Source: a virus
Virus genome (UHGV): UHGV-0096558
Length of the DNA stretch: 54,457 nt
Direction: 5' to 3' (one strand)
Within the stretch, counting starts at the first letter, position 1. Every line of letters begins with the position of its first letter. The position numbers were made by a program, and so were the translations under genes. This document shows positions 34,077-41,598 of this stretch, in pieces. The notes below the pieces were generated by a model. It saw only the letters and a list, made by a program, of their open reading frames with translations, was not told where the DNA came from and did not search any database.

Positions 34077-34474
34077 ATGAATATACTTTTAGCCTGCCTT
34101 ACCCGCCATCGAATAATCGCTATTACCGACATTCGCGCGGTTTTCACTATATAAGCAAAGTGGGGAAGGAATACAGGGAGCAAGTAAGAGACATCATCGA
34201 ATTATTAAATTTAGACATTAACCTATCTTGCCGACTGGCAATCGCCATTTATGCCGCGCCGCCGGATAACCGGATCAGAGATCTGGATAATATCCCCAAA
34301 TGCCTTTTTGATAGCCTTACTTACGCCGGATTCTGGACTGATGACGGACAAATCGACTCAATAAAAATTGTACGCTGCCGGAAGGTAAAAGGCGGGCGAT
34401 TGTTTATCAAGGTGCGCGAACGCGGCGACCTGCTACCGGATATTGACGAATACGCGACCAATATGTGGGGGTGA
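34073..34474 (+). CDS. rusA: RusA-like Holliday junction resolvase
   Basis: 133 aa; N-terminal ...LPYPPSNNRYY... and acidic catalytic region; follows NinG. Confidence 0.8.
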   Translation: MNEYTFSLPYPPSNNRYYRHSRGFHYISKVGKEYREQVRDIIELLNLDINLSCRLAIAIYAAPPDNRIRDLDNIPKCLFDSLTYAGFWTDDGQIDSIKIVRCRKVKGGRLFIKVRERGDLLPDIDEYATNMWG

Positions 34475-34476
34475 CA

Positions 34477-34713
34477 ATGGAGCAAATAAACATTGTTGTT
34501 AAATGCATTCAATCAAGCGTCGATTTTTTCACAGAAGGGAAAAAGTATTCAGGTTTTATAAAGCATGGGTGTTTTGCTTTTATCTTGCAAGATGATCTTG
34601 TATCGGATTTCGACGACGCCGACGCTTGGCGATTAGTACAGTATTTCCCATCAAAAAATGAGTATTTCTTACAGGGCCATTTTAAAACTCGGTTTAAGGT
34701 GGTAGAAAAATGA
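34477..34713 (+). CDS. hypothetical protein, 78 aa
   Basis: ATG at 34477, RBS GGGGGTGA. Confidence 0.5.
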   Translation: MEQINIVVKCIQSSVDFFTEGKKYSGFIKHGCFAFILQDDLVSDFDDADAWRLVQYFPSKNEYFLQGHFKTRFKVVEK

Positions 34714-34891: not shown

Positions 34892-35620
34892 ATGAATCTT
34901 GAATCCATTCTAAAATTCCATTTTCCGAAATCACCGCGATTATCTGACGAAAGCCGGGGCACGTCCCCGGACGCGCTTAATACTACGGATGCACTAACCG
35001 CCGCTGGCATGGCGCAATCGCGAGTAGAGCTTGGATATAGCGCTTTTTTAGGGAAGATGGAACTATCGCAAGCCGAAAAACACAGGGCCGTAGTTTTGCT
35101 TACAGAGCGTTTAAGAGCTATGGCGAAAGATTACGAATACGTGATGGAATTAAATGAAGAACAACGCAATGATCTTATTATTCTTGTTGCCGTTTTCGCG
35201 TTTCGGGATTATTGCCAGAGTGCGGCGACAGAAAAAGTTTGCCCTAAGTGCGGCGGTCACGGGCATTTACCAAATCCATATTGCGAATACACATCAACAA
35301 TTTGCGCACGGTGCGGCGGCAAAGGTTACGTTAAAAACCATTGCCAACGTTGCAAGGGGCGTGGAGAAGTACCGGATAAAACAGCCAGCGAAGCGGCGGA
35401 AATGCCAGTATTCAAAACGTGCCAGCATTGCGGCGGGCGCGGGGACTCGCGTTTCCCGGTAGATCTCGTCCGGCAGGCGGTTAATCAGCTTGTTTTTCCG
35501 GTAAGCCGATCAACATGGTGGAAGAAATACCGGGTTTTCTATGAAGACGCCATAGCTGAGCTATTCAAAGAAGAGGCCCGCGCGGAAAGTGAGATCAAAC
35601 TAGTGACACGGGGTGAATAA
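34892..35620 (+). CDS. zinc-finger protein with four CxxCxGxG repeats; possible late-gene antiterminator (Q-like)
   Basis: CPKCGGHGH, CARCGGKGY, CQRCKGRGE, CQHCGGRGD; position downstream of nin/RusA genes. Confidence 0.4.
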   Translation: MNLESILKFHFPKSPRLSDESRGTSPDALNTTDALTAAGMAQSRVELGYSAFLGKMELSQAEKHRAVVLLTERLRAMAKDYEYVMELNEEQRNDLIILVAVFAFRDYCQSAATEKVCPKCGGHGHLPNPYCEYTSTICARCGGKGYVKNHCQRCKGRGEVPDKTASEAAEMPVFKTCQHCGGRGDSRFPVDLVRQAVNQLVFPVSRSTWWKKYRVFYEDAIAELFKEEARAESEIKLVTRGE

Positions 35621-35820
35621 TGGATAAGCTGGAAATAAACGATCGGTTCGCTGTTATCTTATTTGAAGATAAAACAGGCGGCGCATGGTGTAAGAAAGTT
35701 ACTGGTGCTGAAGCACGATTAATACTAGGCATGGCAAGCGCATTAAACGAAGGTGAATTGCCCGCCATCCCTGTTAAGCCAGTGCATATCTATAAAAGGG
35801 GCGACGATGAAAATAATTAA
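35620..35820 (+). CDS. hypothetical protein, 66 aa
   Basis: ORF track. Confidence 0.5.
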   Translation: MDKLEINDRFAVILFEDKTGGAWCKKVTGAEARLILGMASALNEGELPAIPVKPVHIYKRGDDENN

Positions 35821-36154
35821 CATCGGGTGGTTATATTGCGAAAACTGCGACGACGACGGCATGGTCGTTAAGACTGAAAAAGGTTGCGGCTTCATACTGT
35901 ATCAAGACGATAAGTTTGTTTGCCCGCGATGCGGTGGTCGTGGTGAGATAGAAATCGTTGATGATATTGCTACCGCACCTAAGCCATCGCGCATTGTCCT
36001 TGATGAAAAAATAAAAATTCATCCTGATTTATTACAGCAAATTATCGATCACGTATCGGCAGCCGCAATCTATGGCGATAACAATTATCAGCGTGAAATG
36101 AACGTCGAACGTGTAATTGAGCAGTATTTCGAAGGTGACGACAATGAAGCCTAA
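35807..36154 (+). CDS. zinc-ribbon protein, 115 aa (CENC...CPRCGG)
   Basis: ATG at 35807 within ORF 35753..36154. Confidence 0.5.
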   Translation: MKIINIGWLYCENCDDDGMVVKTEKGCGFILYQDDKFVCPRCGGRGEIEIVDDIATAPKPSRIVLDEKIKIHPDLLQQIIDHVSAAAIYGDNNYQREMNVERVIEQYFEGDDNEA

Positions 36155-37518: not shown

Positions 37519-37752
37519 ATGCGTATCTATGAACACAAGTGGGATAAAACCCGCTTTTTTGTTCGTGCTGGCGTGGCGTACCAGTATCACGAATGCGGAT
37601 ATATTGAGGCGCTTGCTTACGACCTGGATTTCGAACAAGAAAGAGAATGGTTTGATTTCAAGATCTACCGGAAACGCAAGCCAACGCGCGACGAGCGCCA
37701 CGCTATCCGGGACTTTTTAATCAGCATTGACCGCTGGGAGGCAGAGGAATGA
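37519..37752 (+). CDS. hypothetical protein, 77 aa
   Basis: ORF track. Confidence 0.5.
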   Translation: MRIYEHKWDKTRFFVRAGVAYQYHECGYIEALAYDLDFEQEREWFDFKIYRKRKPTRDERHAIRDFLISIDRWEAEE

Positions 37753-37976
37753 AAGTTAAATTCTTGCACGATCACGGATACCCTTCATTGAAACATGTTG
37801 TTGGTAAGGTCGTTAATGTCGTCCATAGCGATGAGATTACTTGCATGATTAATGGTGCTGATCTCATTGCCGCTGGTGCTGATGACCATTATATCAATCC
37901 GGCGTGGTCGTATACGTTCAGTCTTGGTGACTTCGTGGGTGACAAGGGGCGCGGTCTGCAAATAGTCGAGGGTTAA
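37749..37976 (+). CDS. hypothetical protein, 75 aa
   Basis: ORF track. Confidence 0.5.
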   Translation: MKVKFLHDHGYPSLKHVVGKVVNVVHSDEITCMINGADLIAAGADDHYINPAWSYTFSLGDFVGDKGRGLQIVEG

Positions 37977-37980
37977 TATC

Positions 37981-38196
37981 ATGGACGTTTACGAAGATTT
38001 ATACCTTCAGACAAATACCCGCACTTTTTATTTTCTGAAAAACGGCGTCGTATATCGCAGCGATGACGGGGTAATAATGAAAGAGTGGTTATTTAAGCGT
38101 AAAGACCTACTCGACGATCTGGTTTTTGCCGGGATATTCCGTAAACGTCCGGCTAACCTGGAAGAAGAAATGTTGATCGACGAGGTATTAAAATGA
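37981..38196 (+). CDS. hypothetical protein, 71 aa
   Basis: ORF track. Confidence 0.5.
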   Translation: MDVYEDLYLQTNTRTFYFLKNGVVYRSDDGVIMKEWLFKRKDLLDDLVFAGIFRKRPANLEEEMLIDEVLK

Positions 38197-38438
38197 AAGT
38201 GAATTATTTCAGGGCAAAAGACAAGGCAACAGGAAAGCGGGTGGCTATCCTGGTTAATGAAGCAAATTATATGTTTGTTCTCCAGCCGTGGTGCATAGCT
38301 GACTATAACGATGATTATCGCCGTCACGCTGCGCGGCGGGCGGTCGGGATGAAAGGCTGGCAACCGCGAGACATGCTTAATTATTGCGACTGGAACCTGA
38401 TAGCAAAATACACGGTCGATTATAAAGGGGTTTTCTGA
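38193..38438 (+). CDS. hypothetical protein, 81 aa
   Basis: ORF track. Confidence 0.5.
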   Translation: MKVNYFRAKDKATGKRVAILVNEANYMFVLQPWCIADYNDDYRRHAARRAVGMKGWQPRDMLNYCDWNLIAKYTVDYKGVF

Positions 38439-38440
38439 TT

Positions 38441-38656
38441 ATGTTTGCAAGATGCGTTTATTCTGACACTACGTGCTTTACTACTGGCGAACTATATAGC
38501 GTTGATCTTCTTAATGGGTGCGAGCGCGGCGCTGGCGGTATTCATTATGTAAAAGATAATGATGGCGATGCGTGGCAATTTTACGGCGATTACGTAAAAG
38601 GGGTTGTTAAGGGTAGTTTTGATAATCGTGTGATGGCGCGTTTTGTTAAGTGGTGA
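38441..38656 (+). CDS. small protein, paralogue family member (C..S...F..G..Y ... D..G..W.FY pattern)
   Basis: ORF track; shares motif with 38666..38905 and 38902..39126. Confidence 0.5.
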   Translation: MFARCVYSDTTCFTTGELYSVDLLNGCERGAGGIHYVKDNDGDAWQFYGDYVKGVVKGSFDNRVMARFVKW

Positions 38657-38665
38657 GGTAGTGTT

Positions 38666-38905
38666 ATGAGACAGAATCAGAGATACCAGTGCACATACTC
38701 ACGATGCAGCGCGTTTTTTAAGAATGGCAAGATCTACGAAGTCGGCGCGGCATTGGTTGACGCAAAGGATCAGGAATATATTCACGCCATTACTGACGAC
38801 CAGGGCCAGTTATGGCGATTTTATAAGATGGGCTGTGGCACTGCGCTTGTTTATGCGCGTGCTGGTGGTGGTGCTTTTGCTGCGTTTTCGTATGTAGGGG
38901 TATGA
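38666..38905 (+). CDS. small protein, paralogue family member
   Basis: ORF track; CTYSRCSAFFKNGKIYEV...DDQGQLWRFY. Confidence 0.5.
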   Translation: MRQNQRYQCTYSRCSAFFKNGKIYEVGAALVDAKDQEYIHAITDDQGQLWRFYKMGCGTALVYARAGGGAFAAFSYVGV

Positions 38906-39126
38906 AAATGATTTTAACGTGTAACGAGTCGGAATTAGGCTGTTTTGAGGAAGGCGCACAGTATACGGCTGAAAAACCGATGGGATTGTCGCCTAAGTTG
39001 CCGTTTATCGTCGTGACTGACACTTACGGTCACTTATGGTATGCAGAGCCGCGCCGGGGGACTGGTCGCTACGTTGTCCGTAGTTCTGACGGGGCTATGA
39101 AAGTTACTTTTACGGAAGAAACATAA
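38902..39126 (+). CDS. small protein, paralogue family member
   Basis: ORF track; CNESELGCFEEGAQYTA...DTYGHLWYAE. Confidence 0.5.
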   Translation: MKMILTCNESELGCFEEGAQYTAEKPMGLSPKLPFIVVTDTYGHLWYAEPRRGTGRYVVRSSDGAMKVTFTEET

Positions 39127-39184
39127 ATGTGATCTTCATCACAAGGTATACAAAATGGCATTGTTTCGGCAGTGCCATTTTGTT
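39127..39184. promoter_or_regulatory. compound element: palindrome GTGATCTTCATCAC, then TATACAAAATGGCA / TGCCATTTTGT inverted repeat (11-bp arms, 11-bp spacer)
   Basis: Read directly; upstream of gene 39225. Confidence 0.4.
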
Positions 39185-39224
39185 ATAAAGAAGCTGAAGA
39201 GAGAACAATGCGGAGGGCAGAAAA

Positions 39225-39497
39225 ATGAAACGCTGGATTAACGAAGAAACAGAAGCCCGCTTCAATGCAATTTGGGATCTGATTGAAAAAGAGGACGGCG
39301 TTTCTAGTCCCTACCTGAACAATCTTGAGTTCCACTATGTAGAAGCGATGAACGCAGAGCATGACCACGAAGGCGGTGCTGATGAATTCGCCAAAAAATA
39401 CGGCTTCGATGATGCAAACCATATGATTAACAACGTGGTGATGCAGGCAGAGGAAGACTACGAATGCAAATCACTTGAATTCGCACGCATGGCATAA
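39225..39497 (+). CDS. hypothetical protein, 90 aa
   Basis: ORF track; RBS GGAGGG. Confidence 0.55.
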   Translation: MKRWINEETEARFNAIWDLIEKEDGVSSPYLNNLEFHYVEAMNAEHDHEGGADEFAKKYGFDDANHMINNVVMQAEEDYECKSLEFARMA

Positions 39498-39507
39498 GGG
39501 GGAAAAC

Positions 39508-39648
39508 ATGAACGCTAACGCTAAATATCCGGCTTGGGTTTTCGAACTGTACGCAAGATACTTTGAATTACTGGCACCAGATGAAGAAGCATTAAGCATT
39601 GACGAGTACGCGGAGTGCTTAGGATTTAAAGGAGACGAAGAAGCATAA
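39508..39648 (+). CDS. small ORF, 46 aa, acidic
   Basis: Manual translation; RBS AGGGGGA. Confidence 0.4.
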   Translation: MNANAKYPAWVFELYARYFELLAPDEEALSIDEYAECLGFKGDEEA

Positions 39649-39691
39649 AACACGGGGCCGGATGGCCCCATCAAATCAGAAGGGTGTAATT

Positions 39692-39991
39692 ATGAAAAGC
39701 GCTAAATTTATTGCGTGCTGTTTTGTTGAAGTCCCTAACGATGATGTTTTCTGCAATTATGAATTTAAAGACAGCGCCGGAATCGTTCATGTTGTGGTTG
39801 GCAAGCGTGGCGACTGGTTATATATCACTGATGGAGACAGGATCTTCACTAAAAACCAGTTATTCAGAATAAAGTCAGAAAATAATGAAATACCTGTAGG
39901 TAATATGGGGATCATGAATTACCACGCCTGCTTATGGTTAAAATCTGATGCGGTAAATAAAGCGCGTAGCTTACCTGGTGCTGAATTTTAA
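39692..39991 (+). CDS. hypothetical protein, 99 aa (possible distant member of the small paralogue family)
   Basis: ATG at 39692 within ORF 39662..39991; RBS AAGGGTG. Confidence 0.5.
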   Translation: MKSAKFIACCFVEVPNDDVFCNYEFKDSAGIVHVVVGKRGDWLYITDGDRIFTKNQLFRIKSENNEIPVGNMGIMNYHACLWLKSDAVNKARSLPGAEF

Positions 39992-40014
39992 TTTCTTACG
40001 AAGGAGAATAAACA

Positions 40015-40338
40015 ATGACTAAATTTATCAGCGTTAAGGTTTTCCGTGGCACTATTCCAGAAGGTGAAAAATACGGCAAATTCGGTGGAATGCCTGGTGC
40101 ATGTTTCCGTGTAGCAACGGAAGACGACGAGCATGTTAAATGCTTCCACGTATCGGAGCCGCCTTTTAATCCAGAACATCTTGAAAACCCTGATAAGGTT
40201 AAAATGTTCGTTTTTGCTTCACTGATGCTTAATCCTTACCCTGATCTTGATGTCGAGTTGGTTGGCGCGGAAAAGATCGCGGAATACAAAATAACAGAAT
40301 CGGAAGACGGAGACTCAAAAATTGAGCGCATCAAATAA
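40015..40338 (+). CDS. hypothetical protein, 107 aa
   Basis: ORF track; RBS AAGGAGAA. Confidence 0.55.
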   Translation: MTKFISVKVFRGTIPEGEKYGKFGGMPGACFRVATEDDEHVKCFHVSEPPFNPEHLENPDKVKMFVFASLMLNPYPDLDVELVGAEKIAEYKITESEDGDSKIERIK

Positions 40339-40570
40339 ACCTTACAAAATCCGGTGTAAAGGTGAATACCCTGGCTTTACGACTGGTTGCGAATACCTGG
40401 GCCACATTGGGTACGGTCCTTTTGGTGAGTTAGGGATGAATACGATGGACGACGACGGCGATAATCGGACGCTCGATCTTGATACGGATGACTTCGAATA
40501 TATCCCGCAAGTTACTTACCGTGCCGTTGATGATTTCCTGGCTGAACAAGAAGACGACGAGGATGATTAA
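40322..40570 (+). CDS. hypothetical acidic protein, 82 aa
   Basis: ORF track. Confidence 0.5.
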   Translation: MSASNKPYKIRCKGEYPGFTTGCEYLGHIGYGPFGELGMNTMDDDGDNRTLDLDTDDFEYIPQVTYRAVDDFLAEQEDDEDD

Positions 40571-40702: not shown

Positions 40703-40895
40703 CTGCCTTGTGGCCGTAATTATTTTGCTATATATCGCTGGCGCTATCCTGATGTCTTGTTTTATCAGAAGTAACGATCTCGATCGTGGTGGCCTTGAGA
40801 TTACTTTCTGGCCTGTAGCGGTATTTATCGCTTTCGTTGAAGCTACGCGCATACAGATCAAAAGAGCTATTAAGGAGCGTAAAAATGGGAAATAG
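40696..40895 (+). CDS. small membrane protein, 66 aa, two predicted TM helices
   Basis: ATG at 40696 within ORF 40608..40895; RBS GGGGGTGAGG. Confidence 0.45.
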
Positions 40896-41109
40896 CGACC
40901 ATGAATATGACGGTGTTTATCAGTCATTGGCGTCACGCGCTTATTATCGCCTTGAAGGTGAACACGTAATGATGCGATTACTCCAGTGTGATCCGTGGCA
41001 TAAAACAATTTTACCTGTGACAGCGAAAGAAGTTATCACGATGTTTAATCACGGGCACTGGCGCAAGGTTGGTGATATTAAATTCAGGATGTTTAAGGAT
41101 GGTGATTAA
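40885..41109 (+). CDS. hypothetical protein, 74 aa
   Basis: ATG at 40885 with RBS AAGGAGCG. Confidence 0.5.
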   Translation: MGNSDHEYDGVYQSLASRAYYRLEGEHVMMRLLQCDPWHKTILPVTAKEVITMFNHGHWRKVGDIKFRMFKDGD

Positions 41110-41292
41110 ATGATTGAAGATGGCATATACGCCGTAACACTAATCGACAAGATGTTTTATCGCGTAGAGGGTGGTGATATTCGCGTTTGCGTTAGCGATG
41201 GTGAGTGGGTAGCGCCAATCATCAAGACGACGCGAGAAACAATTAAAATCTGGCTTGATAATGGTGATTTGGTGAAAGTTAGTGATTTGTAG
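41110..41292 (+). CDS. hypothetical protein, 60 aa
   Basis: ORF track. Confidence 0.5.
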   Translation: MIEDGIYAVTLIDKMFYRVEGGDIRVCVSDGEWVAPIIKTTRETIKIWLDNGDLVKVSDL

Positions 41293-41355
41293 CCATAATC
41301 GCGCATAAAAAACAAATAGATTAAAATATTTCCTAACAATGCGAAATTGTAATTA

Positions 41356-41378
41356 CCCGGCCCAGCGCCGGGTTTTTG
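41356..41378 (+). terminator. rho-independent terminator (CCCGGC / GCCGGG then T5) immediately upstream of lysis cassette
   Basis: Read directly; position analogous to a tR-prime-type late terminator. Confidence 0.6.
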
Positions 41379-41397
41379 CTTTGTTGGAGGAAAATCT

Positions 41398-41598
41398 ATG
41401 TTCGACAAAATACGGGAGGCGTGCGCGTATGTGACCGGGGCCGTAACTGCTTTTTTCGGCGCGATAACCATCAATGACATTGCCGTCTTTGTGGGTATCT
41501 TATCAACCGTAGGCACATTTGCCGTTAACTATTACTTCAAATCACAGGAGAACAAACGAGCGCAAGAGGAACACGACGCGCGAATGGGGAATAAGTAA
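41398..41598 (+). CDS. holin, small two-TM, pinholin-like
   Basis: 66 aa, two hydrophobic helices, charged C-terminus; immediately upstream of SAR endolysin. Confidence 0.7.

Follow-up and report, generated by a model that had tools for sequence, protein, structure and literature searches.

Small paralogous proteins encoded in UHGV-0096558

In the 54,457-nt stretch of the virus genome UHGV-0096558 analysed here (hereafter the window), two adjacent plus-strand genes, A (38441-38656) and B (38666-38905), and a separate gene, G (34477-34713), each encode a single copy of one small phage domain of about 60-75 amino acids (aa), as probably does C (38902-39126), the gene adjoining B. The best explanation, which as a whole seems to us evenly balanced between right and wrong, is that these genes belong to one small domain family with old tandem duplicates, the products of which would serve as delayed-early accessory binding modules. 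Taken alone, this family of accessory genes is an ordinary one, consisting of small paralogues in a region that varies between phages. The useful result is that one compact domain links three sets of proteins annotated as hypothetical, namely the tandem copies of the mEp phages, a gene of about 824 genomes of T1-like phages and a protein with eight copies of the domain. The three adjacent genes of the window are as follows.

38441..38656, plus strand: member A, 71 aa, with the signature RC-x7-F-x2-G-x2-Y ... D-x2-G-x2-W-x-FY
38666..38905, plus strand: member B, 79 aa, with matches to PHROG 31142 and to profiles
38902..39126, plus strand: member C, probable and divergent, 74 aa, with a start that overlaps the stop codon of B (ATGA)

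The open reading frames (ORFs) named in an earlier, sequence-only reading of the window were present, with Shine-Dalgarno-like sequences upstream. When 19 small proteins of the surrounding gene array were compared in all pairs by Smith-Waterman alignment against 2000 shuffled sequences, two pairs stood out, A-B and 40837-41110. The score of A against B was 64 (z = 8.4), and none of the 2000 shuffles scored as high; the similarity noticed in the sequence-only reading thus exceeds chance. Both proteins matched the hidden Markov model (HMM) of PHROG 31142, A over its full length (4.6e-43) and B at 1.3e-5. Profile comparison by hhalign linked A and B to each other (85%) and to D, a gene of the phage MagusPhagus (A-D 90%, B-D 83%), and A to G (62%). 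On this sequence evidence, A and B are paralogues and family members beyond reasonable doubt. Some database variants of B (P0016-P0018) are frameshifted into an overlapping ORF, which corresponds to 38724-38897 in the +2 frame inside 38666; these could represent pseudogenisation or assembly error.

The domain in other phages

The window belongs to the mEpimmI group (mEp021-like) of temperate coliphages, which are Nus-dependent (PMC11893012), with 84-88% identity to mEp010, mEp044, mEp554, mEp013, mEp021, mEp515 and MagusPhagus. At the position of the array, MagusPhagus carries five genes in tandem, comprising the orthologues of B and C, two divergent members, D (1e-8) and E (6e-5), and a probable member, F. 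D also matched PHROG 31142 (7.8e-7).

Apart from deletion chimeras, the database searches with A, B and C yielded nothing but close relatives in Escherichia coli prophages, all annotated as hypothetical. An exhaustive search of 1.84 billion representatives gave only 14 matches, including P0032, an A-like protein of 68 aa, and P0031, a protein of 855 aa (L012 6001-8568) in which eight tandem copies of the domain are joined by EEPK-rich linkers. P0031 is encoded on a 68-kb phage-like metagenomic contig, and a second protein of this contig (261 aa; L012 1632-2417) has one copy of the domain. P0034 (438 aa, four stretches) was judged from its sequence to be a spurious match with a different repeat.

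Three profiles were used to trace the domain. The broad CORE profile was built from the family sequences just described, and the P0031-repeat and T1-like profiles were built without any window sequences. The P0031-repeat profile scored 44% with A, 91% with B and 93% with D, and at most 2.5% with unrelated array genes. The T1-like profile scored 93.5% with A, 62% with B, 1.8% with D and 85% with the P0031 repeats, and at most 0.45% with unrelated array genes. CORE also detected three dispersed genes of the T1-like phage Bas11 (E about 4e-4):

L005 7760-7930: bas11_0041
L005 11579-11944: bas11_0048
L006 6448-6639: bas11_0071

One of the three sits directly upstream of the Bas11 holin gene. The Bas11_0048 domain (rtp69-like; VOG2763) was present in about 824 records of phages, nearly all belonging to the Drexlerviridae, either as the C-terminal part of proteins of about 120 aa or as a stand-alone protein, and its motifs (IKC...F.AGKRY...GYVFDEDGDRW.LY) align with A. 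Unlike the genes of the window, these homologues belong to virulent phages, where they are a near-universal single-copy gene, often with an extra N-terminal region, and form no tandem arrays. PHROG 31142 has weaker links to PHROGs 4927, 10169, 9122, 16833 and 3523, all labelled 'unknown function', and the P0031 repeats match PHROGs 3523 and 10169; the PHROGs database spreads the domain over several families. The common signature is [VI]-[KR]-C, 3-10 residues, F/W-x2-G-x2-Y and then an acidic turn, D-x2-G-x2-W/Y. No record of the reach of this domain across phage groups was found.

Membership of the third adjacent gene

The evidence for C points in both directions. In the pairwise test its similarity to A and B was marginal (p = 0.004-0.006), and an alternative is that only A, B and G are homologous, C being an unrelated small beta protein with motifs that are alike by chance or convergence. 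The profile searches speak for this alternative: against the 934 reading-frame segments of the window, C reached only E = 0.83 with an HMM of A and B and E = 3.4 with the CORE HMM, the two independent profiles did not detect it (0.13% for the P0031 repeats and 0.42% for the T1-like profile), and it had no PHROG match. However, a two-motif pattern derived from A and B alone with a spacing tolerance of two residues, C.{5,10}F..G..Y.{17,22}D..G..W, matched A, B and C only among the 934 segments, with order and spacing kept, and had no chance match in 2000 shuffled windows or in 200,000 shuffles of the composition of C. The CORE profile scored 21.0 against C over 62 columns, a score that none of 400 column shuffles reached (p about 7e-4) and that lay above all ten control families (maximum 16.0). 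C is also adjacent to B, with a start overlapping the B stop codon, and in complete E. coli genomes the two usually occur together; the predicted strands of C are in register with those of A. We therefore regard C as probably a very divergent member of the family, and consider an unrelated origin unlikely. The three adjacent paralogues proposed in the sequence-only reading are accordingly solid for A and B but only probable for C. The combination of an N-terminal Cys motif with D..G..W, which was proposed there for the whole group, is common to A, B and C, while the further candidate 40322-40570 has the N-terminal motif only.

A lipoprotein signal in C (MKMILTC) was considered and rejected by eye, the leader being too short.

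Other candidates in the window

Three further genes were examined, two of which (39692-39991 and 40322-40570) had been suggested as possible members from the sequence alone. The two with motif matches are listed here.

34477..34713, plus strand: G, a dispersed member of 78 aa encoded between the gene for a RusA-like resolvase and Q; alternative GTG start at 34465
40322..40570, plus strand: unproven candidate I, 82 aa, with the N-terminal motif RC-x6-F-x2-G-x2-Y and a DDDGD turn

The strict N-terminal motif occurred in five segments of the window (G, A, B, C and I) against 0.38 expected. G was detected by CORE (hmmsearch E = 5e-4 against the 934 segments; shuffle p = 6e-6), with hhalign values of 62% to A and 68% to CORE. 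It scored lower elsewhere (36% with the P0031 repeats, 4.4% with the T1-like profile and only 0.07 with PHROG 31142), and it carries the N-terminal motif without the full two-motif architecture. Judged by these sequence matches, G is a member of the family, located outside the range of the earlier reading.

The two candidates of that reading fared less well. I is without the conserved Trp and has an acidic tail; its profile tests were at chance (CORE p 0.09; under 1% with the P0031-repeat and T1-like profiles) and no PHROG matched it, so that its membership is unproven and, in our judgement, doubtful. The gene 39692-39991 showed nothing above chance, with a CORE p of 0.17, under 1% on the independent profiles and no PHROG match, and its membership has no support. 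Pairwise comparisons of 39692 and 40322 were likewise at chance (p = 0.08-0.7).

Predicted structures and likeness to Gp54

Structure prediction, which the sequence-only reading had proposed as a check, gave AlphaFold models of low confidence for A (pLDDT 49) and C (pLDDT 63); both are all-beta, and their six strands occupy corresponding positions. The strands are 3-6, 18-23, 34-38, 44-48, 53-58 and 64-69 in A, and 2-7, 20-24, 36-39, 45-51, 56-60 and 67-72 in C. In these low-confidence models the Cys would lie in strand 1, F-x2-G-x2-Y would run from the loop between strands 1 and 2 into strand 2, and D-x2-G-x2-W would lie between strands 3 and 4. In BFVD, the C model resembled many small proteins (TM 0.6-0.72) that come from T1-like and other enterobacterial phages and are uncharacterised. 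Sequence searches of the PDB with profiles of A and B and of C gave nothing meaningful.

The low-confidence C model also resembled Gp54 of phage Bas11 (PDB 9AXB; PF25180, 'Phage antiviral trigger protein Gp54'). Gp54 is a small, non-essential protein of unknown function that directly binds the sensor domain of CapRelSJ46 and activates it; its fold is a rare barrel of six strands in which the loop between strands 1 and 2 is long, its nearest neighbours are SH3 domains, and not all of its close homologues trigger CapRel (PMC11578894). No protein of the window matched PF25180 even at E <= 1, while Gp54 itself scores 116 bits. Sequence homology to Gp54 was rejected: hhalign gave 1.4% or less between the Gp54 family and every family, and the N-terminal region of Bas11_0048 was also negative against Gp54. 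The possible resemblance is a lead provided by a model, not a finding.

Position and transcription of the array

A, B and C lie in an array of about 22 small plus-strand ORFs that extends over about 5.7 kb from the Q gene to the holin gene. It starts at the Q stop codon and ends about 100 nt 5' of the holin gene (41398), with the lysozyme gene next (41519). Two features bound it.

34892..35620, plus strand: Q-type antiterminator gene at the upstream end of the array (Pfam PF03589 Antiterm, 1.5e-29)
41300..41397, plus strand: conserved non-coding module containing a TAAAAT that resembles a -10 element, AACAAT downstream of it and, followed by a T-run, a GC-rich hairpin (41355-41373)

There are no gaps from Q to 39126, and intergenic gaps occur only at 39126-39225 and 41292-41398. 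A stretch of about 90 nt preceding the holin gene hardly varies among five phages, including those with a different gene upstream of it, and a terminator scan located the hairpin in this stretch (RNA fold z = -3.3). This module is probably a Q-dependent lambdoid late promoter with a terminator. Its location just before the holin gene would place the array in a delayed-early transcript with Q, and the assignment of the genes to a 'late-early operon' in the sequence-only reading is plausible in this respect. A sigma-70 promoter scan found fewer sites than chance and none convincing inside the array, and was uninformative. The gap directly 3' of C (39126-39225) is the only sizeable one inside the array; the mEp044 record has a Rho-independent terminator at the equivalent position, and a plus-strand scan of the window found none.

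Gene content between Q and holin varies widely among relatives, from about 8 genes in mEp021 to about 20 in the window and MagusPhagus. The array is in this way similar to the accessory genes ('morons') of the lambdoid nin and Q-to-S regions, which likewise form runs of small and dispensable genes, closely spaced and mosaic, in the vicinity of Q and the lysis cassette, with content that varies between relatives. It differs from them in following Q without an intergenic gap and in having tandem paralogues. No ORF of the array matched a named Nin family in Pfam or NCBIfam scans.

Selection, gain and loss

The ratios of nonsynonymous to synonymous substitution rates (dN/dS) between orthologues were 0.14-0.23 for A, 0.04-0.22 for B, 0.13-0.16 for C and 0.02 for G. 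These values indicate real genes under purifying rather than diversifying selection, and the diversification under selection proposed in the sequence-only reading is therefore not borne out. The paralogues are about 25% identical and no DNA-level similarity or repeat was detected between them, suggesting that the duplications are old; the closely spaced genes A, B and C are thus old tandem duplicates.

The distribution among related phages, which the earlier reading had named as a check, is variable. Copy number ranges from 0 to 5, mEp021 having none in the region and MagusPhagus five in tandem. Any gene of the cassette was found in 22 of 5426 complete E. coli genomes, and all three in only two of the 5426. 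The family genes are freely gained and lost among related phages by deletion and recombination.

Public assemblies of E. coli and phages contain in-frame chimeric ORFs (A+40322, A+40608, B+41110, B+40015 and B+39662), whose products (P0004, P0008, P0013, P0015, P0020 and P0021) have the N-terminal part of A or B and the C-terminal part of a downstream gene. The A+40322 junction of P0004, at the DxDGD turn, has only GGCGAT microhomology. P0004 was therefore rejected as evidence of homology between A and 40322, similar fusions joining unrelated array genes. A junction with microhomology only suggests that the chimeras reflect deletions, which points to frequent deletions across the array.

Possible functions

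We infer an accessory role in binding host or defence factors from the small size of the proteins, their modular domain, dispensability, variation in copy number, position in an accessory array and possible Gp54-like fold. The domain appears modular since eight linked copies occur in P0031 and since it is C-terminal or stand-alone in T1-like phages. It appears dispensable and variable since mEp021 is without A, B and C, the cassette is rare in E. coli and deletion chimeras occur. A, B and C would share a transcript with Q, lie before the late promoter and thus have delayed-early expression. Each paralogue may be a free-standing protein-binding module for a different host or defence factor. The genes would then be dispensable and accessory, with a part in modulating the host or countering its defences and none in replication, lysis or virion assembly. 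The anti-defence or host-takeover role suggested in the sequence-only reading would suit this setting.

Several points weigh against this explanation, in addition to the poor profile scores of C and the negative sequence comparison with Gp54. Pfam, NCBIfam and PADLOC gave no match for the family members (the PADLOC defence models were searched with A, B, C, G, H and I), and every related PHROG carries the label 'unknown function'. Many other roles would be just as compatible with purifying selection and small size, and the transcription unit is predicted from sequence patterns. Both structure models are of low confidence, and a fold search of the PDB with the A model (pLDDT 49) returned generic beta-sheet matches only, without retrieving Gp54.

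The main rival to a protein-binding module is a domain with nucleic acid or another polymer as its ligand, in the way of SH3-, Tudor- and OB-like barrels; the proteins would then be small regulators or factors handling DNA or RNA rather than anti-defence binders. A small beta-barrel of the SH3-like class would suit this, SH3 domains being the nearest neighbours of Gp54 (PMC11578894), and the genes lie beside recombination genes (NinG, RusA) and Q. The eight-copy tandem protein suggests a repetitive ligand, and the T1-like homologue, kept in about 824 genomes, suits a housekeeping accessory role; this near-universal gene and the eight-copy protein fit polymer binding equally well. However, there were no matches to nucleic-acid-binding families and no obvious basic patch by eye, and a copy number of 0-5 within one phage group also argues against such a role, which we consider rather improbable.

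Returning to the accessory binding role, a bolder form of it is that the whole superfamily, including the mEp tandem copies, the T1-like gene and the eight-copy protein, adopts the Gp54-type six-stranded barrel and engages sensor domains of bacterial immunity proteins. This is speculative and has little probability in our view. If true, these proteins would be widespread small phage inhibitors of immunity sensors, which some defences learned to detect, and tandem paralogues would broaden the range of defences covered.

It is very improbable that the proteins are associated with the virion or act as assembly or ejection factors that are brought into the cell: the mEp021 orthologue of the neighbouring gene 37981 was detected in purified virions by mass spectrometry (PMC11893012), but 37981 is not detectable as a family member (CORE 1.8%, T1-like profile 0.1%), mEp021 is viable without A, B and C, and these genes lie outside the structural cluster.

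The family is a tractable target, comprising short, non-essential proteins with natural zero-copy and multi-copy phages for comparison. With it one could ask whether small beta-barrels of this kind serve to bind host or defence factors, a role hinted at by the possible resemblance to Gp54.

Other genes of the array

A second, unrelated pair of tandem paralogues is found at the end of the array (40837-41109 and 41110-41292; Smith-Waterman z = 9.2, hhalign 83.6%). Both genes match PHROG 15318 (2.9e-5 and 7.7e-29, respectively).

The gene 37981-38196 is the orthologue of mEp021 gp41 (L004 4716-4964), which is annotated as a virion structural protein based on mass spectrometry of purified particles (PMC11893012). 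Its location outside the structural cluster is odd for a virion protein.

The Q antiterminator (34892-35620) contains a DnaJ-type CXXCXGXG zinc finger region. The ORF 35807-36154, two genes 3' of Q, matches this zinc-finger motif more weakly.

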